From positions 3,658,001-3,722,000 of the forward strand of contig CM059453.1 of NCBI GenBank assembly GCA_030390025.1: DNA of 64,000 nt. Reading direction: 5' to 3'. The notes beneath the pieces are model-generated. The model saw only the letters and a list, made by a program, of their open reading frames with translations, was not told the origin of the DNA and did not search any database. Numbering within the stretch: position 1 is the stretch's first letter; each line of letters starts with the position of its first letter. The translations under genes and the position numbers were made by a program. This document shows, piece by piece, positions 1-25,206 of this stretch. This DNA comes from Squalus acanthias (taxonomy: Eukaryota).

Positions 1-1088
1 TTGTAAACCTCCTCAGCACTCCCTTCAAGGAATTGACATCCTTCCTAAATCAATGAACAATTCTAGATGCAAATGGAATAAGACAGCACAATCGATTTAC
101 AATGTAAGAATGTGCAACTTTCTTTAATATTCTCCTATTACTGTTCTTGCGTGGATTCTGTGCTTATCAAATTAAAAGCTGCCTTGATCATAAATTTTAT
201 TTTACGATAAAAGGGTGCAGTTGGAGTCCACCAAACATTGGGAGTAATTTTGAATGGGAGCGATGAAGTAAAATGAGTGAATGCCAGTCGGAAGCTCTTC
301 TTATATTTCTCCATATAAATCCAGATATCACCCCTTTTACGCTATGGCAGGAGGACAAACCTACCCCCAATACTTCATAATTTTAGGGTTAGTCGAGCTG
401 ATTGACATTAGAAATGGAGCACCCAATTTGTCAACAAAATAAATGTTTTAGCTTCACGAAAATTTTCATCTCCTTATCCATTGTGCCGCTCTGTAAAATT
501 ATATGAGCCCCTGAGCTGGTATAAGGAATATAAAAGTCTCTGCATGCTGAGACCGTGACATGGAAATGGAACCAGAAACAGAAATAGGATCTTAAATGAT
601 TTTCATTAAGATGAAATTGGCATATAGGTTTGTTTCCTGTCACCATTCGCATCGTAGTCGTGTGTTGAAAGAGTTATGTTAAACAGAACGTTGAGCTAAA
701 CACATGCTTATGTCATCTAAGGGGAAGTTAGATAAGCATATGAAGGAGAAGGACATACAGAGTTATGCTGTAATAGTTAGATGAGGAAGACTGGGAGGAA
801 GGTCGAGTGGAGCATAAACGCCAGCAAGGACTGGTTGGGCCGAATGGCCGTTTTCTGTTCTTGGATATTCTATGTAATCCTATGTCATTTTTTCCAAAGT
901 AGCATTAAGAATGCTATGCAATTACTTCATTTGCAAAGCACGCATCAGGGGTCGTTGCAGTAGCTTCTCTTCATTTAGGTTCAAACATAACGCTTCAAAA
1001 TCTTTATATGTGTTCAGTTAAATTACTTTGAAATTGAGAAGAACTGTTTGAACCAGCATTGGCATAGCAGGGTGGAAATTTCACTTAC

Positions 1089-1144
1089 CGTTTACCGTTG
1101 AATTAATGTTCGCATCATTTTGTCCCTGCATTCGATCATTCATC
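1089..1144 (-). CDS. Cytoplasmic exon 1, duplicate copy (MNDRMQGQNDANINSTVN)
   Basis: Acceptor catttatttag|G, donor AACG|gtaagt; 56 nt, phase 2 to 1; paralog of 4880-4935. Confidence 0.8.
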
Positions 1145-1810
1145 CTAAATAAATGTTGTGCAACAGATCAAAATGTGAACTTTCAGGAGGATATTTTATT
1201 TCAATGATTCATTCAATATGATCTGCAACAGAAATTCTAATTATTCAGGACCAATTATTAATGAAAACTGTTTTTCTGACCGGAAAACAGAAATGTTATG
1301 CTACAGGTCGATCTCCAAGTCAGGAGTCAAGACTTCAGGTGAAGCGGGGTAGAGCAAATAATTTGATCAGGACATGGAGATATTATTCAGGTTACCAGAA
1401 TAAAGTCTAACAGTGTGTCCTTATTTCTAACCTATCATGTATATTATTGTTTACAGTCAAATATTAAAACTTGGGGCTATATGGGAAGCCGATTGAAGTT
1501 GGTGGAAGCCCAGATGTTTCTCTGTACTGCAGCTTGAGGATTTGGGAGACGCAAAACTGAGGCACTGCAGCATCAACAGTGGAGGGAGGGTGTAATTACA
1601 GCATGAGGCGTTTGCAGAGGCAGATTCCAATCAATCCGAAAACAACATCAATTAATATTAAATGTGGAAACATGCCTTATCACTACATACATTTGAAGTG
1701 TGATATAGAAATATTTGGAAACAACTTTTTTCAAACCTAATTTAATTCAATCTACCGGGCTTTGGACAAAACTATTAAAGATGCAGTTAAAAGCTGAATA
1801 CTATATTTAC

Positions 1811-1934
1811 CCGGCTGCTTTCCTTTTGACCAACCATGCAGTGATCACGCTGATCAAACACACAATAAGAAGAGCAGAAATCACTATCCCTGCTATGGCG
1901 CCACTGCTTATGTTATTGTACTCACTTGTTCGAT
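1811..1934 (-). CDS. Transmembrane exon, duplicate copy (DRTSEYNNISSGAIAGIVISALLIVCLISVITAWLVKRKAA)
   Basis: Acceptor ttgcatttttcag|, donor GG|gtaaat; 124 nt; CEACAM1-like SxGAIAGIVI hydrophobic segment followed by a KRK stop-transfer. Confidence 0.88.
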
Positions 1935-2402
1935 CTGAAAAATGCAAACAGACAAAATAATGAACGCTATTATCACACGCCAAAGACAATTGCAATTCGG
2001 TAGCAATATATAAAAAAATGAAATCAGCATTCTCAGTTTTAATGGTATTTTGTTTGAAGTCTTTGGTGCCACGCAGCAACATTTATACAAATAAGCCAAA
2101 TATCGATATTCAGTGCACTCAAAATATACTCAATTATTATAGAATTTACTCTCAAATAGGGTACGTTATCCGAGAGGACTGGTTTCCCAGAAGATTAGAT
2201 TTCAAAGCTCACCATAGCTGTCCCTGGAATTGTACACAATATAACTGCTAATTTGTGAGCAAGCACCAGAAAAATGTTGTGTAATTGCATTTGTTGTTCA
2301 ACCCAACTGGTTGAGTAATGTTCTACCGGGAAAGAATCGTGTCACCCTATACAGTCTATATCTCTCAACAGTCCTGCACTACCTGGTGGACAGTTAATGC
2401 TG

Positions 2403-2457
2403 TTAGGGCACCTGGGGATCAGACATAAACATTGTCTTGACCCGTGAAACCCCTATC
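2403..2457 (-). CDS. Candidate terminal coding exon of the ITAM tail (R-IGVSRVKTMFMSDPQVP-stop)
   Basis: Acceptor cattttatttgttcccag| lies 79 nt after the phase-2 donor at 2537; in frame to TAA at 2405-2403. A second nearby AG (2412) is also possible. Confidence 0.3.
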
Positions 2458-2536
2458 CTGGGAACAAATAAAATGTCCATATTTCTTTATTTTCGCAACA
2501 TGGTGGAACAGTTGTAATTTTTTTCTACCCACTTAC

Positions 2537-2580
2537 CTCATCAGATCACTGTAAACTGCCTGATCTTGCAGCTGTAATCC
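2537..2580 (-). CDS. Cytoplasmic exon 4 (GLQLQDQAVYSDLMR), second half of the ITAM
   Basis: Acceptor ttcttcacttttcacag|, donor AG|gtaagt; 44 nt, phase 0 to 2. Confidence 0.85.
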
Positions 2581-2717
2581 CTGTGAAAAGTGAAGAAATC
2601 ATTCTGTTTAGCTGACAGATTGGCCGAGATATGGAGCGCAGCAAAAGAGAGCTGAAATTCCATTTTTAAAAACTGAAAATGAATAGTTTGAAGAAATAAA
2701 CAAAATAATGTCCTTAC

Positions 2718-2759
2718 CATGTAAGTGGAGTTTTCATCAAGTGGCTTCGGAGCTCCCTC
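2718..2759 (-). CDS. Cytoplasmic exon 3 (EGAPKPLDENSTYM), first ITAM tyrosine
   Basis: Acceptor ttgcttttgcacag|, donor ATG|gtaagg; 42 nt, phase 0 to 0. Confidence 0.85.
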
Positions 2760-2914
2760 CTGTGCAAAAGCAATTGGATGAACCAAATTGTAAACAGTTA
2801 TACAAAGAATCCCATCAAGTTGCTTCAGAATTAATGGTAAGCCCAACATCTTATATACTGACATAAAAGTTAGAAGAGTTTGCTTATATTATCCATCCCA
2901 CAAACGAAATTGCA

Positions 2915-3027
2915 GGATGTGAATTTTCACTTCTTCTGCCTGTTTGAACAAGGACAATAGTGCATCGAACGCACATTTTACGCTCCGCCCGATTTTCGTT
3001 CCGCATGTAAAAGTGAAAATTCATCCC
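2915..3027. mobile_element. Short MITE-like element with terminal inverted repeats
   Basis: ggatgtgaattttcactt ... aagtgaaaattcatcc inverted ends, non-coding. Confidence 0.55.
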
Positions 3028-3256
3028 AATATTCTATCCAACACCAGAAACATGTTTGGATTGTCGTAAAACCCCAACTGGTCCTCTAATGCACTGAGTC
3101 GAGATCGCCTGCCACTCCCTCCCTGGTCTGGTTATATGTGACACCAGTTTACTGCTAATACAGGAACCATGACTTCGATGGATATGAACAAGAATAGATT
3201 CCCTTTAGTTTACTGAGCTCACCAATATAGTAGAATATTAATAGAACTGTACCAAC

Positions 3257-3321
3257 CTTTTGCTTTCTCGGAATATTTTCATAGGTCCCTCCTGAGTTCC
3301 CACCGACTGTAGCGGAGATGT
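3257..3321 (-). CDS. Cytoplasmic exon 2 (DISATVGGNSGGTYENIPRKQK)
   Basis: Acceptor tgtttgatattcccccag|, donor AAG|gttggt; 65 nt, phase 1 to 0; contains TYENI. Confidence 0.85.
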
Positions 3322-3365
3322 CTGGGGGAATATCAAACATTTAATCAGCCTTGAAAATACATTAA

Positions 3366-3880
3366 TAGAATCATAGAATGAAACAGCACAGAAGGAAGCC
3401 AATCGGCCCATCCTGCATGTACCATTGGTTTGGACGTGTTATCTCATTATTCCCATTCCACCACCCTTTCCCTAGAGCCCTGTAATTTTTTCCCCGTCAA
3501 GTATTTATCCAATTCCCTTTCGAAAGTTACTGTTGAATCTGCTTCCACCGTCCTTTCAGGCAGTGCATTGCAGATCATAACTACTCACTGCATAAATAAA
3601 TCTCATCTGCCAGCTTTCTCATTCGACAATTTGCCTGAATCTGTGTCCTCTGGTTATTGACCCTTCTACCACTGGAACAGTTTCTCCATATTCACTCTAG
3701 CAAAATTCTTGATGATTTTGAACACCCATATTAAATCTCCCCTTAGCCTTCTCAGCTCTCAGAACAACAATCCCAGCTTCTCTAGCGTCTCCATGGAACC
3801 GAAGTCCCGAATCCTTGGTACCATTCTAGTAAACGTCATCAGCAACCTCTTCAAGGAATTGACATCCTTCCTAAAGCAAT
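3366..3880 (-). mobile_element. CR1 LINE 3' fragment
   Basis: (atagaatc)n tail and decayed similarity to the CR1 RT C-terminus seen elsewhere in the window. Confidence 0.75.
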
Positions 3881-4879
3881 GAACAATTCCAGATGCTAAT
3901 GGAATAAGACATTGTAAGAAATTGCATCGTTATCTAATATTATTCTATTATTGTTTATTGCGTGGATTCTGTGATAATCAAATTAAAGGCTGCTGGGACA
4001 TAAACTCTATTTTAGGATAAAAGGGTGCAGTTGGAGCCCACCAAACATTGGGAGTTATATTGACTTGGAGCGATGAAGTAAAATGAGTGAATGAAAGTCG
4101 GAAGCTCTTTTTACATTTCTCCATATAAATCCATATATCACCCCTTTTCCGCTAAGGCAGAAGGACAAACTTACCCCCAAAACTTCATAATTTTAGTGTT
4201 AGTCGAGCTGATTGACATTACAAATGGAGCACCCAATTTGTAAACAAAATAAATGTTTTAGCTTCACGAAAATTTTCATCTCTTTGTCCATTGTGTATCT
4301 CTGTAAAGTTATATCAGCTCCTGAGCTGGTATAAGGAACATACATGAAAATGGAGCCAGAAACAGTGATTGGATCTTAAAGGATTTTCATGAAGATGCAA
4401 TTTGCATATAGGTTTGTTTCCTTTCACCATTCGCATCCAAGTCTTGCGTTGAAAGACCAATGTAAACAGAACGTTGTGCGAACCACGTGCTTATGTCTTT
4501 AAGAGGATGCTGCAGAAGCATATGAGCGAGAAGGGAATAGAGAGTTATGCAGATAGAGTTAGATGAGGAAGGCTGGGAGGAAGCTCGAGAGGAACATAAA
4601 CGCTAGCACGGACTGGTTGGGCCGAATGGCCGGTTTCTGTCCTGTGTATTCTGTGTAATCCTATGTATTTATTTCCAAACTTGCATTGAGCATGCTATGC
4701 AATCATTTCATTTGCAAAGCACGTAACAGGGTTCGCTGCATCAGCTTCACTTCATTTGGGTTCAAGCATAACGCTTTAAAATCTTTATATGTGTTTAGTT
4801 AAATTACTTTGAAATCAAGAGGAACTGTTGAAACCTGCATTGGCACAGCAGCGTGAAAATGCTGAAATATTTCACTTAC

Positions 4880-4935
4880 CGTTTACCGTTGAATTAATGT
4901 TCGCAGTATTTTCCCCCTGCATTCGATCATTCGTC
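4880..4935 (-). CDS. Cytoplasmic exon 1 (R-TNDRMQGENTANINSTVN)
   Basis: Acceptor catttatttag|G, donor AACG|gtaagt; 56 nt, phase 2 to 1, compatible with the TM exon and exon 3257-3321. Confidence 0.85.
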
Positions 4936-5088
4936 CTAAATAAATGTTGTGCAACAGACCAAAATGTGAACTTTTATTGCAATGATTCATTAAATATGAT
5001 CTGCAATAGAAATTCTAATTATTCATGACCAATTATTAATGAAAACTGTTTCTCTGACGGGAAATAAGAAATTTTATACTACAAGTTA

Positions 5089-5380
5089 GAAACATAGAAA
5101 CTTAGAAACTAGGAGCAGGAGTAGGCCATTCGGCCCGTCGAGCCTGCTCCACCATTCAATACGATCATGGCTGATCATCCAAATCCAGTACCCTGTCCCT
5201 GCTTTCTCACACAGAATCCCCATCGAGCCTGCACCTATCCCACCCTATCCCCGTAACCCCACGTATTTAATTCCCCCTAACATATCCCATCCTATCCCCA
5301 TAACCCCACATATTTAATCCCCCCCTAACACTAAGGGTCAATTTATCATAGCCAAATCAACCTAACCCGCACATTTTTGG
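5089..5380 (-). mobile_element. SINE with CR1-type 3' tail, present in only one duplicate copy
   Basis: (agaaacat)n tail; flanked by acaagtta (5081-5088) and acaaatta (5381-5388); absent at the equivalent site (~1302) in the other copy. Confidence 0.8.
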
Positions 5381-5884
5381 ACAAATTAATCTCCATGTCA
5401 GGAGTCAAGACGTCAGGTGAAGCGGGGTAGAGCAAATAATTTGATCAGGACATGGAGATATTAGGTTACCAGTATAATGTCTAACAGTGTGACCTTATTT
5501 TTAACCTATCATGTATATTATTGTTTATAATCAAATATTAAAACTTGGGACTCTTTGGGAAGCAGATTTAAGTTTGTGGAAGCCGAGATGTTTCTCTGTC
5601 CTGCAGCTTGAGGATTTGGGAGACGCAAAACTGAGGCACTGCAGCATAAACAGTGGAGGGAGGGTGTAATTACAGCATGAGGCGTTTGCAGAGGCAGATG
5701 CCAATCAATCCGAAAACAACATCAATTAATATTAAATGTGGAAACATGCCTTATCACTACATACATTTGAAGTGTGATATAGAAATATTTGGAAAGAACT
5801 TTTTAGAAACCTACTTAAATTGAATCCACCAGGCTTTGGACAAAACTATTAAAGATGCAGGTAAAAGCTGTATACTATATTTAC

Positions 5885-6008
5885 CGGCCTCCTTTCCTTT
5901 TGACCAACCATGCAGTGATCCCGCTGATGAAACACACAATAAGAAGAGCAGCAATCACTATCCCTGCTATGGCGCCACTGCTTGTATTATTTTCACCATT
6001 GGTTTGAT
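5885..6008 (-). CDS. CEACAM-like transmembrane exon (DQTNGENNTSSGAIAGIVIAALLIVCFISGITAWLVKRKGG)
   Basis: Acceptor ttgcatttttcag|, donor CG|gtaaat; 124 nt, phase 1 to 2; GAIAGIVI motif as in the CEACAM1 TM; no charged TM residue. Confidence 0.9.
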
Positions 6009-7360
6009 CTGAAAAATGCAAACAGACAGAATAATGAACGCTTTTATCACACGCCAGAGACAATTGCAATTCGGCAGCAATGTGTATTTGGGAGAGAAAT
6101 ACAAATTTCAGATTTTAGTGGCATAGTGTTTGACTGGTTTCAAGTTTCAATTGCTGCAAAAAATAAAAGGGGCCAATGGTTGAAACCAACACAATTAATG
6201 TTCTCCCTTTCAAATACAACTCTGTGCAACTCCATGGTCGTCCAGCTGGTTCAGGTACTATGCCCTTGATCCCACCATACATTTCTAGTTACCCTGTACA
6301 GCTCTTGCTAATGCTAAAAACCGGCGATTGAGGAGCGACCGCCTGTTACACACCACTCCCGATTATTCGTTCCAATAATCGAATGGAAAATCGGAGATAA
6401 ATGGTAGATTCTTGATGGGATTCAGGAACTGAATGATTTGGGCTGCAGCTGCGCGATTCTTAAAAGCAGGATTACAACTGGAAACTCCGCAAAAAGAACA
6501 AATAGGATTCTGGCTTTTGTGTATACTAGTGTATTGAATACAAAAATCAAGGAGGTGGAGATGAGTCTGCACAATACATCCGTCAGGCTATATTTAGAGT
6601 ATTGTGTGTAGTTTTCGATTTCACTAGGATGCCAGCGATGAGAGGATATGAATGAGACGAGGGCTCAAAATCTAAATAGTTTTCACTGCAACAGCTAAGT
6701 TTTGGAGAAGGTACAATGGAAGTTCTCAAAATTGTGAAAGGAGTGTAACTAGGGAAAGACTGTTGTCACTGGTCTGTAAACCAGTTCAAGTTGCATAAAC
6801 CTTGGCTTCATGCTAGAAACACAAAAGGGGAGTTGATAACCTATTGTTCCTGCCAAGGATTGTTACAATATAGAAGATAAGTGGCTAACGGTTCCAATTC
6901 AATCATAACACCGAAGAGGGAGCTACATAAACAGTTCAAGAAACAGTTGAAAGGTATGGGGAAATAGCAAAGACATGAAGCACCAAAATGAGGCAGGTTG
7001 ATCATTTATGGTAATGATATACAAGCTATTTCCGGGGATAGAGTAGATAGCGCCATTGTGAAGTGAACAGTCATACAGGTCGAACAGCCATACTGAGCGT
7101 GCATGATTCTGATTACACGATCTAAGAATTATGCACATTACACGTCACGTTACATTATGTATGAGACCATTTGTTTATTCCGTCTGGGACAGTATGCATA
7201 CCCTTGGATCATACACCCAAATCAAAATTTTTATAAATAACATCCTTACCTCCAACACAGCTCGAACAGAACATAGGAATACTACTGATGAAGTAAATGC
7301 ATTCAGGGTTACAAGTCTGGCCAAAGTTCGTATTTAACGCACAGTGAAACATGTACTTAC

Positions 7361-8986
7361 CGTTTACAGTTACCTGTATGGAAGCCTTACTGCCCTTTTT
7401 AAGAACATAAGAAATAGGAGCAGGAGTAGGCCATTTGGCCCTTCGAGCCTGCTCCACCATTGAATAAGATCATGGCTGATCTGATCTTCGCCTCAACTCC
7501 ACTTTCCCGCCTGCTCCCCATAACCCTTTACTCCCCTGTAGCTCAAATATCTGTCTATCTCTGCCTTGAATATATTCAATTACTCAGTCTCCACAGCTGT
7601 CTGGGGCAGAGAATTCCAAAGTTTCACGAATCTTTGAGAGAAGAAATTACTCATCTCCGCTTTAAATGGACGACCCCCCACTCTGAAACTATGCCCCCTA
7701 GTTCTAGATTCCCCCACGAGGGGAAACATCATTCCTGCATCTACCCTCTCAAGCCCACTCAGAATATTACATGTTTCAATAAGATTGTTTTTTTAATTCA
7801 TTTATTGTACGTGGGCGTCGCTGGCAAAGCCACCATTTATTGTCCATCCCTAATTGCCCTTGAGAAGGTGGTGGTGAGCTGCCTTCTTGAACCGCTGCAC
7901 TCCGTCCGGTGAAGGTACTCCCACAGTGCTGTTAGGTAGGGAGTCCCAGGATTTTGACCCAGCGACGATGAAGGATCAGCGATATAATTCTAAGTCAGGA
8001 TGGTGTATGACTTAGAGGGGAACTTGGAGGTGGTGGTGTTCCCATACACCTGATGCCCTTGTCCTTCTAGGTGGAAGAGGTCGCGGGTTTGGGAGTTACT
8101 ACCGAAGAAGGCTTGGCGAGTTGCTGCAGGGCATGTTGTAGGTGGTAGACACTGCAGCAATGGTGTGCCGGTGTTGGAGTGATGAATGCATAAGTTGTTT
8201 GATGGGGTGCCAATCAAGCGGGCTGCTTAAAGATCCCCTCTCATTCCTCTAAACTCCAATGAGTATAGGCCCAAGCTGCTCAAACTTTCCTCATATGACT
8301 ACCCCTTCATCTCAGGAATCAACCTAGTGAACCTTCTCTGGACTGCCTCAAATGCAAGTATATCCTTCCTTAAATAAGGAGTCCAAAACTCTACGCAGTA
8401 CTCCAGGTGTGGTCTCACCAACGCCCTGTACATTTGTAGGAAGACTTCCCCACTTTTATACTCCACCCCCCTCGCAATAAGGGCCAAAATACCATGTTCC
8501 TTCCTAATTAATTGCTGTTCCTGCATGGTAACTTTTTGTGTTTCATGTACGAGGATCCCCAGATCCCTCTGTACCGCAGTATTTTGTAGTCACCCTCCAT
8601 TTAAATAATAATTTGCTTTTTAATATTTCCTACCAAAGTGGATAACCTCACAATTTCCCACATTATATTGCAGCTGCCAAATTTTTGCCCACTCACTTAA
8701 CCGATCTTTATCTCTTTGCAGACTCTTTATGTTCTCCTCACAACTTGCTTTGTATCGTCAGCAAATTTGCCTACAATTTGTTGAAGATGTTATTAACCTG
8801 ACAATATATTTCTCACCATGATTCGATCTTATTCAGTCAATGTTGTAAATTGGTCCTTTCTTTAAGAGACTGGTCCCATTCTCTCCTTCATATAGACCAG
8901 CTGGGACTGATAGGGCAGAAAAATAAAATGTAAGAGCTTTCCCTATTTCTACCCAAACTGGGTAATAATGACCTTTTCTGGTCCAC
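7361..8986 (-). pseudogene. Decayed CEACAM B-type IgC exon split by a CR1 insertion
   Basis: Acceptor tgcatttcttgcag| then GPEKVIIT / frameshift / PVWVEIGKALTFYFSALSVPAGLYEGENGTSLL...NID-stop...CQVNNIFNK. After the CR1 (7400-8774) the exon resumes as KGSKASIQVTVN, donor G|gtaagt at 7360. Confidence 0.85.
7400..8774 (-). mobile_element. CR1 LINE 3' fragment with a nested LINE-tail insertion (~7785-8228)
   Basis: RT peptides KFADDT and RPHLEYCVEFW plus (aagaacat) tail; the nested element resembles the 3' end of the LINE at 14295-15752. Confidence 0.88.
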
Positions 8987-9080
8987 CTGCAAGAAATGCA
9001 AGAGCATGTGGCTTTTGGACAACTAAAATAATTACTAATATGCAATACTAACTAATCTTTTTGGCACCCAGCAAACTTGC

Positions 9081-9356
9081 AATTAATTTGCAGGATGGTA
9101 TATCCAGAATCGCTGCTGTAATTATTACTTGCATTGCATTTATATGTTCCTGAATCGCTTCTGTTAACTCTGATTATAGTCAGAGTAAAATTGTCCGGAG
9201 ACATTATTATTCTTCCATTATCCTGGACAGCTTGATTAGTCTTAAACCAAATCCGTGACTGTACAAAGACCGAAGCGTGAAAAGTCAGTAAAATGGTATC
9301 GATGTTTTCTACTGGGTTTGAGTTGTTGACCGATACAGTGACTTTAGAAATTGGTT
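9081..9356 (-). pseudogene. CEACAM A-type IgC exon, open but damaged (EPISKVTVSVNNSNPVENIDTILLTFHASVFVQSRIWFK...DSGTYKCNASNNYSSDSGYTILQIN)
   Basis: Acceptor ttttaattgtatttacag|; 276 nt, open phase 1 to 1. The B-strand Cys position is Phe (TTT at 9282-9280) and the donor is T|gcaagt (GC). Not in the ORF track. Confidence 0.85.
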
Positions 9357-9875
9357 CTGTAAATACAATTAAAAGGGAAATGCGGTTACATCATTTTCTA
9401 CAAAAGCTGTTAAAAGCGCTAATTAAGTAATTTCACATGAAAACATCAAGAGGGTGAAATTCAAATTGGGTGGGGATGCCCAACGGGCGGTGTCACATCT
9501 GTCGCCAGCTCCCCGTCCGACATTGAAGCCAATAGAACTGATTATTGGAAGGGACAGAGAACAGACGCTAGGTGCAATACCGCCTATTTTGCTTCCCCGT
9601 CCAATTACTTTTGAAAATTCCTACTGAACCTGCTTTCACCAATCTTTAAGGCAGTGCATTCCAAATCATATAAACTCTCTGTTTAAAAATAATTTTCATC
9701 TCCGTCGGTTCATTCGCCAATTATCTTAATCTGTGCCCTTTGGTTACCGACTCACCTGCCATTTGAAGCAGTTTCTCCCCATCTACAGTATCAAAGCCCC
9801 TCATAATTTTGAAACCTCTGTTAAACTTCCCCTTAACCTGCTGTGCCCTAAGGAGAACAATCCCAACTTCTCTAG

Positions 9876-10716
9876 TGTAGAATAGAGCTTATCTGTATGA
9901 TTTGATAATGTTTCAAATGTAATGCTTTTCCTAAAATTACTATGATATATAATAATGTATTTGAGAAGCAGAAAACCTCTGTTACAATATGTATAACCTT
10001 AGTTAAAAAGAGAAAAGGCTGAGAAGAAAAGCATGATGGTAAAATTAAGCCAACATTATGTTAACAGAGCGAAGAATGTTAAAGCAGATAGATTTCTGTT
10101 AAGTTAAAAGCAAGAAGCCAGTGAAGGTCAAACATTAATTAAGTTTCAAAGAAAGATAGTGGGTTTTCAACACCTAACATCCCTTATCTCTGAAGATACA
10201 GACCAGGCTAGATAATGGGGTATGAGAAAGGCAAAAGACATCTGTCGTAATTCGTGGGAAGTTTGTTTGTGTAAAATTTCTCAGAGAAAAGCTCATTCAG
10301 AAAAAGGAAGGGAATCAGAGACCGTACAAGTGAGGGTCAGGTATTAGCAACAAGAATGGTGAGATAACCAAAGCAGCAGCAGGTTGCTAAGTATTTTGAG
10401 GGGAGAAAAAGGTATAAAGGAACAGTTATTAATCTTTGGAGGCCGCGCGAAATCAGAGGAAGAGAAACTTCAGTCAACAGAACACAGCAAGCCTGAGAAA
10501 AGAGAGCGTGCCGCAGTCACCCAGTGGGCTATCTACTGGGGTTCCAAGGAACGGATTACGACTATCATCTTGTTAAGTATTACTTCTTTGTACTGGATGT
10601 AAAGTGCTTAATGCATCTGTTATATTTAACACAATATACCTGTACCAGGAGTGGTCTGTTATAACAGGGACAAGTTAAATATAAATTACGGATCTTACAG
10701 ACCTCACGATCTTACA
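9876..10716 (+). mobile_element. Solo LTR with 4-bp TSD, inserted into a CR1 fragment
   Basis: Starts TGTAGAAT, ends GATCTTACA; CTAG on both sides (9872-9875, 10717-10720); CR1 sequence reads through across the site; TATA-like ggtataaag near 10411. Orientation tentative. Confidence 0.85.
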
Positions 10717-11544
10717 CTAGTTTCTCCCCATAAGTGAAGTCTCTGATCACTGGTATAAATCTGGTTAATCTCCTCTGCAACTTCTGCAAGGCCTTGACAT
10801 CCTTCTCAAAGTGGGGTGCATTTAATAGCGATATAAATGCTAGTTTAAAGTACTGAACGTAGGTAGGCATCGAATGGTTCATATATGTACTGCATGAATG
10901 CTGATGGAAATGGATAAGGATGTATTTAAAACAGATCTAGGGATCCTAGTAGACTTGAAGCTCTAATCATTGAAGATCACCAAACACAATGCGAAGGGAA
11001 TGCTGACTCTTAGTCAAAACAATGCAGTACAATCAGAAAAAGATATGCCCACATGGTACATTGCTCTGGTAAGAGCACACCTAGATTACTGTGTGCAGTT
11101 CCGGAAACTTGAGACAAGGGACGCATTCAACTATGAGAGGCAGGGCAGAGATAAGCAATGAGTGTTATGTGGCTGAGTCATGGCAGAAACAATGAAGAAA
11201 CTTAAACTTTCCGCCTTAAAAGAATGAATCTAAAAGGTGATCTTATTGGGTATAGAAAATAATAAATTGTATGGAAAAGATAAATCTAGAAAGTACTTGA
11301 AAGTAAATTGAGAGTAGGACAACAGGTCACAGGTTCGAAGGGTTACAGGCAAATTAAGAACCAAATTCAGGAATTTCTTCATTCCATGAACTGTGAAGGA
11401 GTCCCGCATAAAGTAGTAGGGGACCAAACCTGGATCAGTCAATGAATTCTGATATTCTGAAATAATATCTCTCACACAACTGTTTATTAGTTGTCAGATC
11501 ATGTTCGTGATGGATAAGGAGAGAGAGAAAGAGAGCAAGAGAAA

Positions 11545-14290
11545 GAGAGGGACAGGAATGGCTGTTGGAAGTTCCGGGGTATAGATGTTTCAGTAAGAGT
11601 AGGGAAGTTGGTAAGAAAGGTGGAGGAGTAGCATTGTTAATCAAGGATAGTTTAACAGCGGCAGAAAGGCAGTTCGAGGGGGATCTGCCGTCTGAGGTAA
11701 TATGGGCTGAAGTTAGAAACAGGAAAGGAGCGGTCACGTTGTTAGGAGTTTTCTACAGGCCCCCAAATAGTAATAAAGATGTGGAGGAAGAAATTGCAAA
11801 GCAGATTATGAATAGGTGTGGGGGTCACAGAGTAGTTGTCATGGGTGACTTCAACTTTCCAAATATTGATTGGAACCTTTATAGGTCAAACAGTTCGGAT
11901 GGGATAGTTTTTGCACAGTGTGTGCAGGAGGGTTTCCTGACACAATATGTGGATAGGCCGACAAGAGGTGGGGCCACGTTGGATTTGGTACTGGGTAATG
12001 AACCGGGCCAAGTGTTTGATTTGTATGTGGGAGAGCACTTTGGAGATAGTGACCACAATTCGGTAACTTTCACTATTGCAATGGAGAGGGATAGGGCCAT
12101 ACGGCAGGGCAGGGTTTATAATTGGGGGAGGGGTAATTATGATGCGATTAGGCAAGAATTAGGGAGTATAAGATGGGAACAGAAACTATCAGGGAAAGGC
12201 ACAAACGAAAAGTGGAGCTTTTTCATGGAGCAATTACTGCGTGTCCTTGATAGGTATGTCCCTGTCAGGCAGGGAGGAAATGGCCGAGTGAGAGAACCAT
12301 GGTTCACAAAAGAGGTTGAATGTCTAGTCAAGAGGAAAAAGGAAGCGTATGTAAGGATGAGAAAACAAGGTTCAGTTGGGTCGATTGAGGGGTACAAGGT
12401 AGCAAGGAATGAGCTAAAAAAAAGAGCTTAGGAGAGCTAGGAGGGGGCATGAGAAGTCCTTGGCGGGTCGGATCAAGAAAAACCCCAAGGCTTTTTACTC
12501 TTATGTGAGAAATAAAAGAATGACCAGGGTGAGGGTAGGGCCGGTCAAGGACAGTAGTGGGAACTTGTGCATGGAGTCAGAAGAGATAGGAGAGGTGATG
12601 AATGAATACTTTTCGTCAGTGTTCACCGAGGAGAGGGGCCATGTTCTTGAGGATGAGAGTGTGATAAAGGTGGATAGGCTGGAGGTGGTAGATGTTCTGA
12701 GGGAAGATGTTTTAGCAATTTTGAAGAACCTGAGGGTCGATAAGTCCCCTGGGCCAGATGGGATATATCCTAGGATTCTTTGGGAGGCAAGGGAGGAGAT
12801 TGCAGAGCCTCTGGCTTTGATCTTTGGGTCCTCACTGTCCACGGGTATGGTGCCAGAGGACTGGAGAGTGGCGAATGTTGTTCCTCTCTTCAAGAAAGGA
12901 AATAGGAATGACCCTGGTAATTATAGGCCGGTTAGTCTTACTTCGGTGGTTGGTAAGATAATGGAAAAGGTCCTGAGGGATAGGATTTATGACCATTTGG
13001 AAAGGGGCAACTTAATCAGGGATAGTCAACACGGATTCGTGAAGGGTAAGTCTTGCCTAACAAATTTGATTGAATTCTTTGAGGAGGTAACTAAGTGTGT
13101 AGATGAAGGTAGAGCAGTTGATGTCGTATACATGGATTTTAGTAAGGCGTTTGATAAGGTTCCCCATGGTCGTCTCATGAAGAAAGTAAGGAGTTGTGGG
13201 ATAGAGGGAAATTTGGCCGATTGGATAAGTAACTGGCTATCTCATAGAAGGCAGAGGGTGGTGGTGGATGGAACATTTTCGGACTGGAGACCAGTTACCA
13301 GCGGTGTGCCACAGGGGTCGGTGCTGGGTCCTTTGCTGTTTGTGATTTTTATCAATGACTTGGAGGAGGGGACTGAAGGGTGGATCAGTAAATTTGCTGA
13401 TGACATCAAGATTGGTGGAGCAGTGGATGAGGTGGAGGGCAGTTGTAGGCTGCAAAGAGACATTGATAGGATGGAAAGCTGGGCCGAAAAATGGCAGATG
13501 GAATTTAACCCTGATAAGTGCGAGGTGATTCATTTTGGTAGGGCAAATTTGAATAAGGATTACAGGGTCAACGGCAGGGTTCTGAGGAACGTGGAGGAGC
13601 AGAGGGATCTGGGGGTTCATATCCACAGATCTCTGAAGGTTGCCACTCAAGTGGATAGAGCAGTAAAGAAGGCCTATGGTGTGTTGGCGTTTATTAACAG
13701 AGGGTTTGAGTTTAAGAACCGTGAGGTTATGCTGCAACTGTACAGGACCTTGGTGAGACCACATTTGGAATATTGTGTGCAGTTCTGGTCACCTCACTAT
13801 AGGAAGGACGTGGAAGCATTGGAAAGAGTGCAAAGGAGATTTACCAGGATCCTGCCTGGTTTGGGGGGGAGGTCTTATGAGGAAAGATTGAGGGAGTTGG
13901 GGCTTTTCTCTTTAGAGCGGAGGAGGATGAGAGGCGACTTAATAGAGGTTTATAAGATGATGAGGGGGATAGATAGAGTGGATGTTCAGAGACTATTTCC
14001 TCGGGTAGAGGCAGCTGTTACAAGGGGGCATAACTATAAGGTGCATGGGGCGAGATATAGAAGGGATGTCCGAGGTAGATTCTTTACTCAGAGAGTGGTT
14101 GGTGTGTGGAATGGACTGCCTGCTGTGATAGTGGAGTCGGACACTTTAGGAACTTTCAAGCGGTTATTGGATAAGCACATGGAGCACACCAGAGTGATAG
14201 GGAGTGTGATAGCTTGATCTTGGTCTCGGACAATGCTCGGCACAACATCGAGGGCCGAAGGGCCTGTACTGTGCTGTACTGTTCTATAGA
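11545..14290 (+). mobile_element. 5'-truncated young CR1 LINE: ORF2 endonuclease (11565-12431) and reverse transcriptase (12460-14217)
   Basis: APE motifs YRPP, GDFNFP, LDLVL, SDHN; RT motifs [15 protein letters not shown]; one frameshift at the A8 run 12416-12423; CR1-type 3' tail. Confidence 0.97.
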
Positions 14291-15752
14291 TAGACAATTA
14301 GTGATATCAAGAAACGACTGAATGCACTGGATACAGCTAAGTCTATGGGCACCAAAAACATCCCGGCTTCAGTGCTGAAGACTTGTGCTCCAGAAGTAGC
14401 TGCGCCTCTAGCCAAGCGATACCTTTACAGCTACCACACTGGCACCAATCTGACAAAATGGAACATTGACCAGCTATGTGCTGTCCACAAAAAGCAGGAC
14501 AAATCCAATCCAGCCAACAATGCTATCAAGCGGCACTTATTCACCAATTACCTGCTCACCCATGCTCAGTTTGTATTCCGCAAGTACCACTTAGCTCCAG
14601 ACCTCTGCACAGTCTTGGTCTAAACACGGTCAAAGGAGTTGACATCCAGAGGTGAGGTGAGAGTGACTGCCCTTGACATAAAGGCACTATTTGACCGAGT
14701 GTGGCATCTTTGAACCCAAGTAAAATTGAATTCAATGGTAATCGGGGGAATATCTGCATTGGCTCGAGTCATACCTCGCACGATGGAAGAAGTTTGTGGT
14801 TGTTGGAGGCCAATAATCTTAGCCCCAGGAAATTGCTGCAGGAGTTACTCAGGGCAGTGTCCGACGCCCAAGCATCTTCAGCTGCTTCATCAATGACCTT
14901 CTCTCCTTCATAAGGTCAGAAGTGGGGATGTCCGCTGATGATTTTGCAGTTTTCAGTTCCATCCCCAACTCCTCAGATAATGAAGCAATCCGTCACCAGG
15001 CCTGGCCTGATAAGTCTCAATTAATATTCACGCCACCTAAGTGCCAGACAATGACCAACTCCAACAATAAAAAATCTAAACACCTCCACTTAACATTCAA
15101 CCTCACTACCATCGCACAATCACCCACCATCAACATGCTTGGGTCACAATTTACCAGAATCTTAACTGGAACAGCCACATAAATATAGTGGCTACAAGAG
15201 CAGTTCAGAGCCTGGGTATTCTGCAGCAAGTGACTCACCTGCTGCCTGCCCAAATCCTTCCGACCATCTTCAAGGCACAACTCAGGAGTGTGATGGAATA
15301 CTCTCCACTTGCTTGCATGAGTGCAGCTCCAACAACATTCAAGAAACTCGACATCATCCAGGACAATGCAGCTGCTTGATTGGCACCCCATCCACCACCT
15401 TAAATATTCACTCTTTCCACCACTGGCGCAACGTAGCTGCATGTATAACATTTAAAAGATGCACTGAAGCAACTCGCCAAGGCTTCCTCGACTTCACCTC
15501 CCAAATCCGCGACCTCTACCACCCAGAGGAACAAGGGAGCAGGCGCATATGAACACCACCAACCCCAAATTTCCCTCGAAGTTACACACCATCCTGACTT
15601 GGAAATATGTCGTCGTTCCTTCATCGTCGCTTGGTCAAAATGCTGGAACTCCCTCCCTAACAGAACTGTGGGATTACCTTCAGCACACGGATTGCAGCTG
15701 TTCAGGAAGATGGCCCACCGCCACCTTCTCAAGAGCAATTAGGGATGGGCAA

Positions 15753-17901
15753 CTCTCCGATACCTCTTCCTACCTCCACCTGGACCATGACCCCACTACC
15801 GAACATCAAGCCACTGTGTCCAAGACTGTCACTGACCTCATCTCCTCTGGAGATCTTCCCCCCACGGCCGCCAACCTCATAGTTCCCCAACCCCGCACAG
15901 CCCGCTTCTACCTCCTTCGCAAGATCCACAAACAGGACTGCCCCGGTAGACCCATCGTTTCAGCCTGTTCTTGCCCCACGGAACTTATCTCTTCCTATCT
16001 CGACTCTATTTTTTCTCCCCATGTCCAGTCTCTTCCCACCGACATCCGCGACTCTTCTGATGCCCTCCGGCATTTTAACAGTTTCCAGTTTCCCGGCCCC
16101 AACCGTCTCCTCTTCACGATGGACGTACAATCCCTCTACACCTCCATTCCCCACCAGGATGGCCTGAGGGCGCTCCGCTTCTTCCTTGAACAGAGGCCCA
16201 ACCAGTCCCCATCCACCACCACCCTCCTCCGCCTGGCTGAACTTGTTCTCACTTTGAACAACCTCTCCTTTGACTCTACCCATTTCCTCCAAATTAAAGG
16301 TGTTGCTATGGGTACCCGCATGGGTCCTAGCTATGCCTGCCTTTTCGTGCGATATGTGGAACACTCTTTGTTCCAGTCCTACTCGGGTCCCCTCCCTCAC
16401 CTCTTTTTCCGGTACATTGATGACTGTATCGGTGCCGTCTCCTGCTCTCGCCCTGAACTAGAACATTTCATTCACTATGCTTCCAATTTCCACCCTTCCC
16501 TCACCTTCACATGGTCCATCTCCAACTCTTCCCTTCCCTTCCTCGACTTCTCCATCTCCATCTCTGGGGATAGGTTATTGACTAACATTCACTACAAGCC
16601 CACTGACTCCCACAGCTAACTGGACTACACTTCCTCCCACCCCGACTCCTGTAAGGACTCTATTCCATTCTCCCAGTTTCTCCGTCTCCGCCGCATCTGC
16701 TCTGATGATGCCACCTTCCATACCAGTGCTTCCGACATGTCTTCCTTTTTCCTCAACCGAGGATTCCCCTCTACCGTGGTCGACACGGCCCTCGACCGTG
16801 TCCGTTCTATCTCCTGCACTTCTGCCCTCACCCCTGCCCCTCCCTCCCGGAACCACGATAGGGTTCCCCTTGTCCTCACCTTTCACCCAACCAGCCTCCA
16901 CATTCACGGATCATCCTCCGCCATTTCCGCCACCTCCAGCGTGATCCCACCACCAAATGCATCTTCCCCTCACCTCCACTTTCAGCATTCCGCAGGGACC
17001 GCTCCCTCCGCGACACCCTAGTCCACTCCTTTACCACCCCCAGCACCCCTTCCCCTCCGCCCGGCACCTTCCCGTGCACGCGCAGGAGATGCAACACATG
17101 CCCTTATACCTCCCCTCTTCCCACTGTCCGGGGCTCCAAACACCCCTTCCAGGTGAAACAGCGATTTACTTGTACTTCCTGCAATTTAGTATACTGTATT
17201 CGCTGCTCACGATGTGGTCTCCTCTACATTGGGGAGACCAAACGCAGATTTGGTGACCGCTTTGCGCAACATCTCCGTTCAGTCCGTAAGGGGGACCCCG
17301 AGCTCCCGGTCGCCTGTCACTTTAATTCACCGCTTCACTCCCACTCTGACCTCACCGTCCTCGGCCTATTACACTGTTCCACGGAAGCGCAGCGTAAGCT
17401 CGAGGAACAGCACCTCATCTTTCGTTTAGGCACGCTACAGCCCTCTGGAATCAACATCGAGTTCAACAATTTTAGATCATAACCTCAGCTCCAATCACAT
17501 TTATACTTTATTTTTTCATTCACCCTTTTATTTGCCCCCCCCCCCAACTTTTTTTTTCCTCCTAGAAGCTGGCAGCTGTCCTTCATTCTGCCAGTGGATT
17601 TCACACTTCTTTCAGCCTTAACCTGTCACATTAACACCACCTCTTGCCTCGCATATCTCTTAATGTCTCTTAATGTCTCTTTATCTCCCCCTTTGTTCCT
17701 TTATCCCCTCCCCCTTTTCCCAGCTTTATCCTGGCCTTGAATCTATTTGATTTCCGGCTCTTTCCAGTTCTGACAAAAGGTCATCGACCTGAAACGTTAA
17801 CTCTCTTTCTCGCTCCACGGATGTGGTCTGGCCTAATGAGTTTTTCCAGCGTTTTCTGTTGTTATTTCGGATTTCCAGCATTCGCAGTATTTTGCTATCG
17901 T
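15753..17901 (+). mobile_element. Penelope-like element: RT plus GIY-YIG endonuclease, 5' truncated, 8-bp TSD
   Basis: RT motifs PGRPIVS, MDVQSLYTSIP, GVAMGTRMGPSYA, RYIDD; endonuclease NLVYCIRCSRCGLLYIGETKR (17153-17482); stop at 16617-16619 and a frameshift near 16905; ATGGGCAA at 15745-15752 and 17902-17909. Confidence 0.95.
17766..17802 (+). ncRNA. Minimal hammerhead-ribozyme-like motif in the Penelope terminal repeat (core variant CUGACAA)
   Basis: AGTT-CTGACAA-A-AGGTC-ATC-GACCT-GAAAC-GTT-AACT: stem I AGTT/AACT, stem II AGGTC/GACCT, palindromic AACGTT stem III. Confidence 0.6.
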
Positions 17902-18974
17902 ATGGGCAATAAATGCTGGCCTTGCAAATGAAGCCCAATTCCCGTCAAGGAAAAAAATAAGGTAGATAGTTAGACATGTAGGCAGATAGGCAAATTGATA
18001 GTTAGGCAGTCAGATAGACAGACAACATTCTCGACATAATGTTTATCAGCCATAAATAAACTTTTCAAAGTCTCAAAGTATACATAAAGAGAAAAAGACA
18101 GGTAATCATTTAATACCGGATTCTTGTGACCTGGACTGGGAGATTCACAACCACGCACCCATCTGCAAACTTGCTTCCCTCACCAACAACAATTAATTTT
18201 ACTTTAATCTTTGGATCGCCAATCCATAGCAACTAACCTTTCTAGGCTTAAAGGCACAGGCCTGGTTCAACATAGCTTCACCCTAGTACAGGTAAAATAC
18301 ATTGTCTATTTTATTTTGTAATGCATCTGTTATTCAAAAGAAAGATATTGACCTGGAGTTTTTGGTGGGTTATGATGGTGAACTTTCATCTTTCGTCATC
18401 ATTACCCCTCTGAATCTGACTGCAAGTTCAGGATATAGCACATGCGCATCTAAACGCGGAAATCCTGAAGTTGCGGTCCGTCATCCACTGTCGGACACTG
18501 GCTACACTTTGGAAAGCCCACCCCCCATATCCATCAATCAGTGTATTATGCTTTTCCACGCTAATATCGCTGTTAAGTACCCCATTAAATCTACAGCGTT
18601 GTTAGAATAGATGCAATTGTGGTTTTAACAGCATATTGATGGCTAAACAACCGTTCTGTCCCTGAAAACTAAGTTTTTCATTTGTATACTTTCAAAATTG
18701 TCCATTAGGATAAAAATTAAATTTTTTTCAAACTATATATATTTTTAAGTTAATTCATGATATTTCAGCTTCTACCTTATCCCCATGTGAAAGTCCCACC
18801 TTTTATGTCGCTCTCTGTAAACTGTTTTAAATGTGCAGATAAAAGTTGCTTTTCATTTCCTGGTTTGCTGTCTGTGAGTATTCTTCAATGCGATTGACGG
18901 TTTAGAAAGCTTGTTGAAGTCACAGCAGCACTGCGATAGGGATTCCCATTACACAGCGCTACAATGAATTACAT

Positions 18975-19528
18975 AACATAAGAACATAAGAAATAGGTGC
19001 CGGAATAGGCCATTTGGCCCGTCGAGCCTGCTCCGCCATTCAATAAGATCATGGCTGCTCTTCGACCTCATCTTCACTTTCTTGCACTATCCCCATATCC
19101 CTTGATTCCCTTAATATTCAAAAATCTGTCAATCTCTGTCTTGACTATACTCAACGACTGAGCTTCCACAGCCCTCTCAGGTAGAGAATTCCAAAGATTC
19201 AGCACTCTCTGAGTGAAGAAATGTCTCCTCATCTCAGTCCTAAATGGCCGACCCCTTATTCTGAGACTGTTACCCTTGGTATTAGACTCCCCAGCCAGGG
19301 GACACATCCTTCCTTATTCTACCCTGTCTTGCGCTATAAGAATTTTGTATGTTTCAATGAGATCACCTCTCATTCCTCTAAACTCCAGAGAATATAGGCC
19401 TAGTCTAGTCAATCTCTCCTCAAAGGACAGCCCCCCATCCCAGGAACCAGTCTGGTGAACCTTCGTTGCACACCCTGTATTGCAAGTATATCCTTCCTTA
19501 AGTGAGGAGACCAAAACTGTACACAATT
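18975..19528 (-). mobile_element. CR1 LINE 3' fragment
   Basis: CVQFWSPHLRKDIL and LGLYSLEFRGMRGDLIE peptides; (aacataag) tail. Confidence 0.88.
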
Positions 19529-19901
19529 GCACGTCGAGAATGGCAAACACCTCCACACAGACATCTCCAGATCTCTGTGGGAAGTTTCATCGGGCCCAGC
19601 TGCAAGCGCCTTTGCTTCGCCTCTGACCGCAAATTGCGTGCCATTGCATATTTCAAACAAAGAAGAAAGACGAAGGTGCAGCGCCATGTCAACTCAAGAT
19701 TCACACATTGTACAATAGGAAAATGTCCAGCAAATCGGATGCAAACAAAAGAAAATTAAATATCACTAAGCACTATACTGTTGCGTGCAAGAACAGATTT
19801 TGTTTGGCAATACTGTGGGATGACAGAGATTTCATTTCATACTTGGTAAAGAAACATTGCAGGATAAGAATCCTCGTGACTCGTCTATATTAATCAGCAT
19901 T

Positions 19902-22900
19902 TAGAATCATAGAATCATAGAAGATAGGAGCAGGAGTAGGCCATTCGGCCCCTCGAGCCTGTTCCGCCATTCAAAGCGATCATGGCTGAGCTTACACATT
20001 CAGTACCCTGTACCTGCTTTCTCCCCATACCCCTTGATCCCTTTAGCCTTAAGAAATATATCCAACTCCTTCTAGAATCTATTTAATGAACTGGCCTCTA
20101 CTTCCTTCTGTGGCAAAGAATTCCACAGGTTCACCATTCTCTGGGTGAAGAAATTCCTCCACAGTTCTGTCCCAAATGGCTTACCCATTATCCTTAGACT
20201 GTGACCCCTGGTTCTGGACTCCCCGACCATCGGGAACATCCTTCCTGCATCTAGTTTGTCCTGTCCTGTCAGAATTTTATAAGTTTCAATGAGATCCCCT
20301 CTCATTCTTCTAAACTCCAGCGAGTATAATCCCAATCGATCCAATCTCTCTTCATACGCCATTCCTGCCATCCCAGGTATCAGCCTTGTGAATCTTCGCT
20401 GCACTCCTTCCATGGCAAGAACATCCTTCCTCAGATAAGGCGACCAAAACTGCACACAGTACTCAAGGTGTGGTCTCACCAAGACCCTGTACAACTGCAG
20501 CAAGACATCCTTGTTCCTGTACTCAAACCCTCTCGCTATGAAGGCCTACATACCATTTGCCTTCTTAACCGCCTGCTGCACCTGCATGCTTACCTTCAGC
20601 GACTGGTGCACAAGGATACCCAGGTCTCGTTGCACTTCCCCTTCTCCCAATCTATTGCCATTCAGATAAAAATCTGCCTTCCTGTTTTTGACACCAAAGT
20701 GGATAACCTCGCATTGATCCACGTTATATTGCATCTGCCACCCTTTTGCCCATTCACCCAACCTGTCCAAATCATCCTGGAGTTTCTCGGCATCCTCATC
20801 GCAGCACACACGCCCACCCAGTATTGTGTCGTCTGGAACCTTGGAGATCATTAATATATATTGTGAATAGCTGGGGTCCAAGGACCGACCCCTGCGGTAG
20901 CCCACTAGTAACTGCCTGCCACTCGGAAAAAGACCCGTTTATTCCAACTCTTTGCTTTCTGTCTGCCAAACAGTTCTCTATCACAAGTCAATACCTTGCC
21001 CCCAATCCCATGTGCCTTAACTTTACACGCTAATCTCTTATGCGGGACCTTATCAAAAGCCTTTTGGAAGTCCAAATACACCACATCCACTGGTTCTCCC
21101 TTATCTATTTTACCAGTTACATCCTCAAAAAATTCAAATAGATTAGTCAAGCATGATTTACCTTTTGTAAATCCATGTTGACTTTGTCCGATCCTGTCAC
21201 TGTTTTACAAGTGCTCAGCTATTACATCTTTTATAATGGACTCTAGTATTTTCCCCACTACCGATGTGTGTAATTCCCCGTTTTCTCTCTACCACCCTTC
21301 TTGAATAGTGGGGTAACATTAGCTACCATCCAATCCATGGGTACTGTTCCAGATTCCATCGAATGTTGGAAGATGATCAGCAATGCATCTACTATTTCTA
21401 GGTCCACTTCCTTAAGTACCCTAGGATGTAGATTATCAGGCCCTGGGGGTTTAACTGCCTTCAATCCCTTCAATTTCCCGAACACCATTTCCCTACAAAT
21501 ACTGATTTATTTTAGTTCCTCCCTTTCATCAGACGCTATGTTCCCCAATATCTCTGGGAGGTTATTTGTGTCCTCCTTTATGAAGACAGAACTAAAATAT
21601 GTATTTAATTAGTCTGACATTTCTTTGTTCCCCATTATAAGTTCCCCTGATTCTGACTGCAAGGGACTTATGCTTGATTTCACTAATCTTTTTCTCTTCA
21701 CATATCTATAAAAGCTTTTACAGTCAGTTTTTTATGTTCCCTGCAAGCTTACTCTCATATTCTATTTCCCCCTTCTTAATTAATCCCTTTGTCCTCCTTT
21801 GTTGAATCTTAAACTGCTCCCAATCCTCAGGGTTCCTGCTTTTTCTGGCCAATTGATATGCCCTCTCCTTGGATCTTATGCTATCCCTAATTTCCCGTGT
21901 TAGCCACGGTTGAGTCACCCTTTTTGTTTTATTCTTGTGCCAAACTGGGATGAACATATTCTGTAGTTCGTCCATGTGGTCTTTGAATGTTTGCCATTGC
22001 CTATCTACCGTCAACCTTTTGAGTGGCAGTCCCCAATCAATCCTACCCAACTTGCACCTCATACCATCGTAGTTTCCTTTATTTAAATTCAGGACCCTAG
22101 TCTCTGAGTCAACTACTTCACTCTCCATCCTAATGAAGAATTCTATCATATTATGATCGCTCCGACCCAAGGGGCCTCGCACAACATGATTGCTAATTAA
22201 TCCTTTCTCATTGCATAATGCCCAGTCTAAGATGGCCTGATCTCTGGTTGATTCCACGACATATTGGTCCAGGAAACCATCCCATAAACACTCCAGGAAT
22301 TCCTCCTCCATAGTGTTGTTACTAATTTGGTTAGCCCAATCTATATGTAGATTTAAGAAAACCATGATGACTGCTGTGTCCTTATTGCACGCTTCTCTAA
22401 TTTCCCTTTTAATGCCATCCCCAACCTCCGCATTACTGTTTGGTGGTCTATATATCACTCCGACTAAAGTTTTCTGCCCCTTGTTATTTCTCAGTTCAAC
22501 CCATACAGATTCCACATCATCAGAGCTAATATCATTCCTTTCAATTGTGTTAATCCCCTCTTTAACCAGAAATGCTACCCCAACTCCATTTCCTTTTTGC
22601 CTATCTTTCCTGAATATTCAGTACCCCTGGATGTTGAGCTCCCAGCCTTGGACAACCTGGAGCCATGTTTCGGTAATCCCAATCAAATCATATTTGTTTA
22701 CCTCTATTTGCGCAGCTAATTCATCCACCTTGTTCCGAATGCTCATTGCTTTAAGACACAAAGCCTTCAGGTTTGTTTTATTAACGCTCTTAGACATATT
22801 AGAATCAGGATTTACTGTGGCCATGTTTGATTTAAACCGTTGTTTTCTCTGACTGCGATTTCTGTTTTTCTCCTTCCTATCTTTTGCTTTTATCCTTGTT

Positions 22901-22935
22901 TCCCTTTCCTCTGTCTCCCTGCTCAGGTTCCCAAA
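19902..22935 (-). mobile_element. CR1 LINE ORF2 (EN plus RT, frameshifted)
   Basis: ORF fragments 22618-23124, 21724-22515, 21258-21488, 20905-21150, 20546-20905 and 20072-20503 with APE/RT motifs; (agaatcat) tail. Confidence 0.93.
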
Positions 22936-22939
22936 AATC

Positions 22940-24510: not shown

Positions 24511-25206
24511 AGGGAGTTTTGCTTTTCTTAATCCCCATCCCGCACCTCCCACCACCCACACAGACACATACATACAACTTTCCCCTTTCTCCAGAATAGA
24601 CCTCACATTTTCTTATTAAGAACTCCCAGACTTCGGCATAGAAATCAGTCTTGGCGGTAACGCTCAACCTGCAGTATCCCGTCAGCTGCCTGTTACACCC
24701 CTCCCTCCCCCGCCCCCCCTCCCACACACACACATATGATATTCCGTTTTATTGAAGTCAAAGGAACTGATATTTTAAAATTCATTCATGGGTTATTGGC
24801 ATCGCTGGCAAGGCCGGCATTTATTGCCCATCCGCAAATTGCCCTTGGTGGTGGTGAGCCGCCTTCTTGAACTGCTGCAGTCCGTGTGGTGACGGTACTC
24901 CCACAGTGCTGTTAGCGAGCGAGTTCCAGGGTGTTGACCCAACGAGGATGAAGGAACGGCGATACATTTCCAAGTCAGGATGGTGTGTGACTTGGAGGGG
25001 ACCTTGGAGGTGGTGGTGTTCCCATGCGCCTGCTGCCCTAGGTTGTAGAGGTAACGGTTTGGGCAGGAAGTAAAAAGGGCTGCCAATTCGCTTTGAGACC
25101 ATTTCTATCTGATGGTGTGGACCAATTTCACCCCATTACATTAAGGAGAGCTACACAGCACGCAGGTAGGATGCTGATATTGCCACTTTTGGCTCCAGTG
25201 TCTCAC

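Follow-up and report, generated by a model that had tools for sequence, protein, structure and literature searches.

The three micro-exons of 65, 42 and 44 nt on the minus strand of the window (the whole 64,000-nt stretch of Squalus acanthias DNA that was analysed) encode a motif that is real and of a known kind, the activating tail of a CEACAM. They are probably the exons Cyt2 to Cyt4 of the tail of a shark CEACAM-family receptor, likely an activating one; the window copy lacks both a leader and an N exon of its own. It belongs to a 69-kb insert that occupies the final intron of an eight-Ig gene, itself damaged, and is probably a pseudogene fragment. The exon plan, the splice joints in relatives, the conservation among sharks and rays, the insert with both of its junctions, and the lesions were directly observed. 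What is unusual is that tail exons, bounded by LINE sequence, have been captured within a different receptor gene; most likely they are debris.

An earlier note had proposed that the micro-exons join in frame to give YENI followed by YMGL-x7-YSDL. This held: all three have AG/GT ends, and both introns were bridged in contigs from public runs, which carried paralog alleles. The transmembrane (TM) exon and Cyt1 to Cyt4 (Table 1) formed a single reading frame with AG/GT ends throughout, and the phase-0 intron between Cyt3 and Cyt4 interrupted the first YxxL of the ITAM after its second residue. The same note had described the membrane span as lacking charged residues, and the TM exon agreed with this. 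At its own cut-offs, Pfam assigned the TM frame and the tails to no family.

The splice evidence came from contigs of four out of eight public runs (two studies), presumed to be RNA, which were aligned to positions 1–9600 at a likeness of 90. Both the Cyt2/Cyt3 and the Cyt3/Cyt4 joints were present in 4/4 of these runs with GT-AG ends; for Cyt3/Cyt4, at least 31 letters lay on both sides in 2/4, one run per study. Among the joints listed, TM/Cyt1 was found in one of the four runs, as was Cyt1/Cyt2, the latter with one short side. Since all four runs had the allele of other cassettes at position 3291, the joints are established for the family and none is attributable to the window copy. Skipping of Cyt1 was considered from a 5887-to-3322 joint in one run and rejected, the letters between being unresolved.

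Table 1. Positions of receptor exons, insert components and mobile elements in the window
Feature	Position	Strand	Details
Second cassette, TM exon	1811..1934	-	its Cyt1 at 1144-1089; its Cyt2-5 just beyond the window
4.07-kb tandem duplication of TM-Cyt4, first unit	2010..6081	-	no Cyt5 of its own
Cyt4 exon	2537..2580	-	44 nt; remainder of the ITAM; phase-2 donor towards the fifth mini-exon
Cyt3 exon	2718..2759	-	42 nt; phase 0 to 0; last two residues open the first YxxL
Cyt2 exon	3257..3321	-	65 nt; phase 1 to 0; YENI (YxN)
Cyt1 exon	4880..4935	-	56 nt; TM/Cyt1 joint in 1/4 runs
Transmembrane exon	5885..6008	-	124 nt; membrane span uncharged
Second IgC (B) exon, decayed	8776..8986	-	stop after 11 codons
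CEACAM-type IgC (A) exon	9081..9356	-	first Cys replaced by Phe, GC donor; the closest paralog has both
Window part of the 67-kb CEACAM-cluster copy	1..22946	-	best donor C30:4442200-4508732, 92-96% identical
5'-truncated LINE piece (~1.58 kb)	22943..24519	-	5' end of the insert
Host last Ig exon C7	25207..25521	-	phase-1 donor
Host Ig exons C1-C6	48727-48443, 45627-45343, 40076-39792, 30250-29966, 29147-28863, 26333-26094	-	open; AG/GT ends
Host V exon	51673..52738	-	broken 20 nt in by the MITE-like element
MITE-like element, non-autonomous	52718-51977		742 nt; short inverted termini; target duplication of 3 nt; numerous copies in the cluster
Host leader exon	52951..52996	-	donor GT changed to CT
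Young LINE piece	53254..54629	.	1.38 kb; 257 nt ahead of the host ATG; missing in the closest sister gene

The earlier note had also taken the exons to form the tail of a functional gene, and this was not borne out: the copy is part of inserted DNA within a different gene that is itself damaged, and it lacks its own leader and N exon. From 9356 to the 22946 junction, neither a leader nor an N exon of the family was found, and the rest of the window upstream is likewise free of N exons of the family; in most paralog cassettes the N exon lies 7–10 kb upstream of the IgC exon. The window copy is therefore a fragment of an activating CEACAM, and not a complete member. IgC domains with both cysteines, intact in several paralogs, are missing from it. 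The final residues and the stop are encoded by a fifth mini-exon (Cyt5) outside the window, at C30:3655509, which was present in 11 of 11 aligned downstream regions, with the stop intact in 10, and yields a short basic end as in homologs. The first cassette, which is the copy with YMGL-x7-YSDL, reaches Cyt5 only by skipping the second cassette; when it reads through or is spliced to the next TM exon, a stop follows within four codons and the ITAM is retained. Elsewhere in the insert, on the opposite strand, C30:3618577-3631677 (+) holds a second captured fragment, which consists of TM and cytoplasmic exons from a different ITAM-type subfamily of CEACAMs and lacks N exons. The captured intron itself contains reverse-transcriptase insertions at window positions 11548-14287 and 15750-17893, one of LINE type and one presumably Penelope-like; the first is 98–99% identical to other copies.

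The host gene, which has a sawshark homolog labelled CEACAM5-like, has three lesions at its 5' end: the CT leader donor, the disruption of V by an element that we take to be a MITE, and the LINE piece before the ATG. Its own TM exon survives past the insert at C30:3612609, where the unspliced reading hits a stop almost at once. Nonetheless, what remains of V can be joined through C1–C7, TM and Cyt1–4 as an open frame (963 codons if IgC is included, 871 if it is left out), all sites being canonical except one GC donor, and the pN/pS of the host ectodomain against three sisters was 0.61–0.74. An in-frame cryptic donor at 52852 (found in 2/6 copies, the host and one sister) is matched by an acceptor at 52003 inside the MITE-like element. 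The host V shows no divergence from that of one sister. Selection was considered as the reason and discarded: the near-identical tract continues past the exon into introns and DNA further upstream, which points to gene conversion instead.

The window copy is probably a pseudogene; the open frame, the cryptic donor and acceptor, and the host pN/pS would also fit a living hybrid. Such a hybrid, in which the eight-Ig host would be spliced onto the captured TM-ITAM cassette, possibly in alternation with its own near-tailless TM, and the cryptic sites would bypass the 5' lesions, is unlikely. Host and cassette do lie on the same strand with compatible phase-1 junctions and 871–963 open codons, the insert holds two intact cassettes plus Cyt5, and a relative of the host at C30:3832-3901 kb, with a DxYAxVxK tail, would form a pair of opposite sign with it. 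However, the leader donor is gone, the V exon holds the element and the LINE piece stands 257 nt upstream of the ATG; the sister that carries the same leader and V lesions shows a 1-nt gap within C4 as well; the near-identity of V with a sister points to gene conversion; Cyt5 can be reached only past the second cassette, the joint to the next TM exon stopping after four codons; and the relative, as assembled here, is itself affected by a 1-nt indel where its V ends. When four of the eight presumed-RNA runs were aligned to 5850–25800 at a likeness of 97, host C7 was uncovered and there was no C7-to-cassette joint among the joints listed, a result that is uninformative on expression. It is correspondingly doubtful that an activating receptor has been caught at birth here, such that a LINE-bounded 69-kb insertion put ITAM exons into the last intron of an eight-Ig receptor whose relative bears DxYAxVxK repeats of inhibitory type, giving a tailless or an ITAM form, with the signal peptide rescued by cryptic sites, one of them donated by the MITE. 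Expression of the hybrid would make it a case in which the birth of a paired receptor could be tested; without expression, it would be ordinary birth-and-death debris.

The eight-Ig-type relative just mentioned (C30:3832470-3900672, +) has duplicated C1–C2 exons and several short DxYAxVxK tail exons, and its C1–C5 domains are 85–97% identical to those of the host. Its DxYAxVxK repeats presumably resemble Csk-binding motifs of EPIYA type. Tail exons resembling the DxYAxV repeats were looked for in the DNA covered downstream of the host and sister TM exons, and none was found.

The earlier note had likened the split ITAM to exons of FcRγ/DAP12 type; the closest match proved instead to be the CEACAM activating tail, for which the phase-0 split and the YxN are published hallmarks. 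In the 3.7-Gb assembly, 10 complete TM-Cyt4 cassettes were examined, a count that excludes one with its TM exon split by an insertion and one with Cyt3-4 alone. YENI was present in all 10 and the ITAM was intact in eight, the other two having an internal stop and a frameshift respectively. The exons were less divergent than their flanks in 9/9 comparisons with the window copy. Among paralog tails, pN exceeded pS in 5/7 TM-Cyt4 comparisons, so that there is no clear sign of the tail sequence having been under purifying selection recently. Broken copies are common across the CEACAM cluster. One ITAM paralog, at C30:4414732-4423500 (+), appears intact, with GC donors at its IgC exon and at Cyt2.

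A search with a paralog N exon returned 15 longer named proteins among 383 candidates. Six of the 15, from five genera, had a tail with YEN and ITAM as in the window copy: P0013 and P0004 (Carcharodon), P0010 (Scyliorhinus), P0012 (Pristis), P0008 (Heterodontus) and P0003 (Cetorhinus); inhibitory tails of TxYAEL type occurred in 3/15. The names of these six elasmobranch homologs are automatic pipeline labels rather than the outcome of functional studies. All six keep the leader and N domains that are absent from the window copy, and the short basic terminus was seen in five of them. The top PDB match of the paralog N domain was CEACAM1 (E = 2.7e-6), and Cys was absent from 22 of 23 N-exon matches, so that the family has the Cys-free IgV N domain. 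With regard to the genomic surroundings, LIPE and XRCC1 domains mapped to other high-numbered contigs, and the LIPE, XRCC1, TMEM145 and TOMM40 families had no match on C30.

As to the ITAM consensus invoked in the earlier note, YxxL/I-x6-8-YxxL/I was present, while the Asp or Glu expected three residues before the first Tyr was not: the window copy has Asn at -3, with acids at -4 and -5. Under the strict consensus the Asn makes the motif ITAM-like. It is also quite improbable, as a statement about the family rather than the window copy, that the tail is not a classical Syk/ZAP70 ITAM but an endocytic or ITAM-like motif, or a recruiter of phosphatase. The missing Asp/Glu at -3 in the window copy is in keeping with this; STYMGL also matches the ITIM consensus quoted in an excerpt of PMC5112662, and the mammalian equivalents are termed ITAM-like in passages of PMC2832619. 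Against it, the two YxxL motifs were seven residues apart in 6/6 homolog ITAMs, Asp is found at -3 in the white-shark homolog P0013 and in two paralogs, and a distinct inhibitory gene with a different terminal exon is present.

This CEACAM1-like inhibitory gene, at C30:4245173-4139686 (-), carries VVYAQP and TDYAEL. Its terminal exon was located by pattern, a reversed control also matching once genome-wide, and then confirmed by tblastn (E = 2e-21). Its N domain is 63–91% identical to other N exons of the main cluster, including 90% against C30:4267843 and 85% against 4407686. It stands head-to-head with a likely long ITAM gene, C30:4267843-4366300 (+), the two N domains being the 90% identical ones. 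This pair is the best candidate for a paired receptor in this genome; that the N exon at 4267843 belongs with the tail at 4358941 is presumed.

By analogy with human CEACAM3 and the Xenopus ceacams, a microbial ligand on the Cys-free N domain of intact paralogs would cluster the receptor, and Src-family kinases would then phosphorylate the ITAM tyrosines. The phosphorylated ITAM may recruit the tandem-SH2 kinases Syk/ZAP70, Grb2 may dock at YEN, and the activating tail would counteract the CEACAM1-like inhibitory partner. Signalling by the tail, like its binding of Syk/ZAP70 and Grb2, is inferred from these analogies.

The closest published parallels include those of passages in PMC2832619, which describe marsupial ITAM-bearing, CEACAM1-related genes with four cytoplasmic exons, YxN in Cyt2, the phase-0 split, and an inhibitory partner with a similar N domain. 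The shark family has the same exon plan and likewise an inhibitory partner with a similar N domain; it differs from the four cytoplasmic exons of that description by its fifth mini-exon, and the window copy further by the want of an acid at -3 and the loss of its N exon. The excerpt of PMC5112662 concerns Xenopus group 1 Ceacams with ITAM or ITAM-like tails, for which the caption of a supplement gives the split and the YxN; these paired receptors share all three traits with the shark family, and their N domains are said there to be closest to N domains from cartilaginous and bony fish. A cassette lodged within a different gene is peculiar to the shark window copy in this comparison, none being found reported for Xenopus in that excerpt. 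Passages of PMC2110893, on dog CEACAM28 and human CEACAM3/CEACAM4, call the phase-0 split typical, propose tail exchange by unequal crossing-over, and describe broken members. In these dog and human receptors, as in the shark tail, the ITAM is in the receptor's own tail and not supplied via DAP12; in the same passages the dog and human tail swaps stay within one family, whereas the shark tail exons entered a distinct eight-Ig gene via a LINE. The abstract of PMC3628338 claims the CEACAM architecture from cartilaginous fish onward, and the part of that paper drawn upon places the ITAM evidence in teleosts; a single skate EST is reported in the portion of PMC4079198 used here, and reptiles are covered in that of PMC13278318. 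A literature search, mostly outside subscription journals, found no study of shark paired CEACAMs or of such an insertion, and nothing on LINE exon shuffling with paired receptors. The exon plan of activating CEACAMs and their inhibitory partner were already present in sharks, and the insert is a base-resolved example of signalling tails moving between receptor families, a step that has been proposed in the paired-receptor literature.

The insert measures 68.9 kb, and its two ends meet at the same base of an empty site that was seen in three sister genes. Similarity to the donor starts at 22946, approximately 180 nt past the donor's N exon, and continues for 67 kb with internal rearrangements. 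The body of the LINE at the 5' end of the insert ends just short of the usual microsatellite tail, and the matching 3' tail closes the far end at C30:3613613-3613634, 67 kb away; four bases are shared at the left joint. The right junction occurred in one of 10 matches in the assembly, and the left-junction search was dominated by LINE copies (40 of 433 candidates scored). A plausible origin is that the LINE would first have entered the host intron, and that a break at its 3' end may then have been mended with a 67-kb copy of CEACAM-cluster DNA from about 0.8 Mb away. An assembly error in a repetitive cluster might mimic the nesting; the region is rich in 97–99% identical duplicates and the cluster is repeated on unplaced contigs. 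Yet the insert is only 92–96% identical to both candidate donors, and the same-base junctions together with the split LINE end flanking the insert make a mis-join unlikely, to the point that this explanation deserves very little weight.

FcRγ and DAP12 are adaptors with a tiny ectodomain, an acidic TM residue and no Ig ectodomain, and their genes, FCER1G and TYROBP, split the first YxxL in the same way. Their YxxL-x7-YxxL spacing is also that of the shark tail, which differs from them in its upstream Ig exon and its uncharged TM. With regard to chance, an ITAM arose from 1/14 candidate micro-exon pairs on the minus strand, this being the window motif, and from 0/24 on the plus strand, compared with 4/1339 pairs over 40 shuffles; taken alone, this test gives the motif modest support. 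That the motif is a chance product of the chosen splice sites, as the four ITAMs among shuffled pairs might suggest, or part of an adaptor gene of FcRγ/DAP12 type, can be dismissed as next to impossible given the joints in public contigs, the conservation in five genera, the Ig exons and the uncharged TM.

Several other rearranged loci of the two receptor types were observed. At C30:3501373-3514525 (+) and C30:3437624-3404554 (-), a CEACAM-type leader and N exon stand ahead of eight-Ig-type C exons, the reverse of the arrangement in the window, and both hybrids have stops or a frameshift. Neighbours similar to these reverse hybrids occur on C29 near 19.62 Mb, on C1010 and on C3351. Within the window, a solitary inverted Ig exon of the eight-Ig family lies at 61970-62329 (+), and occupies the same position in two sister units.
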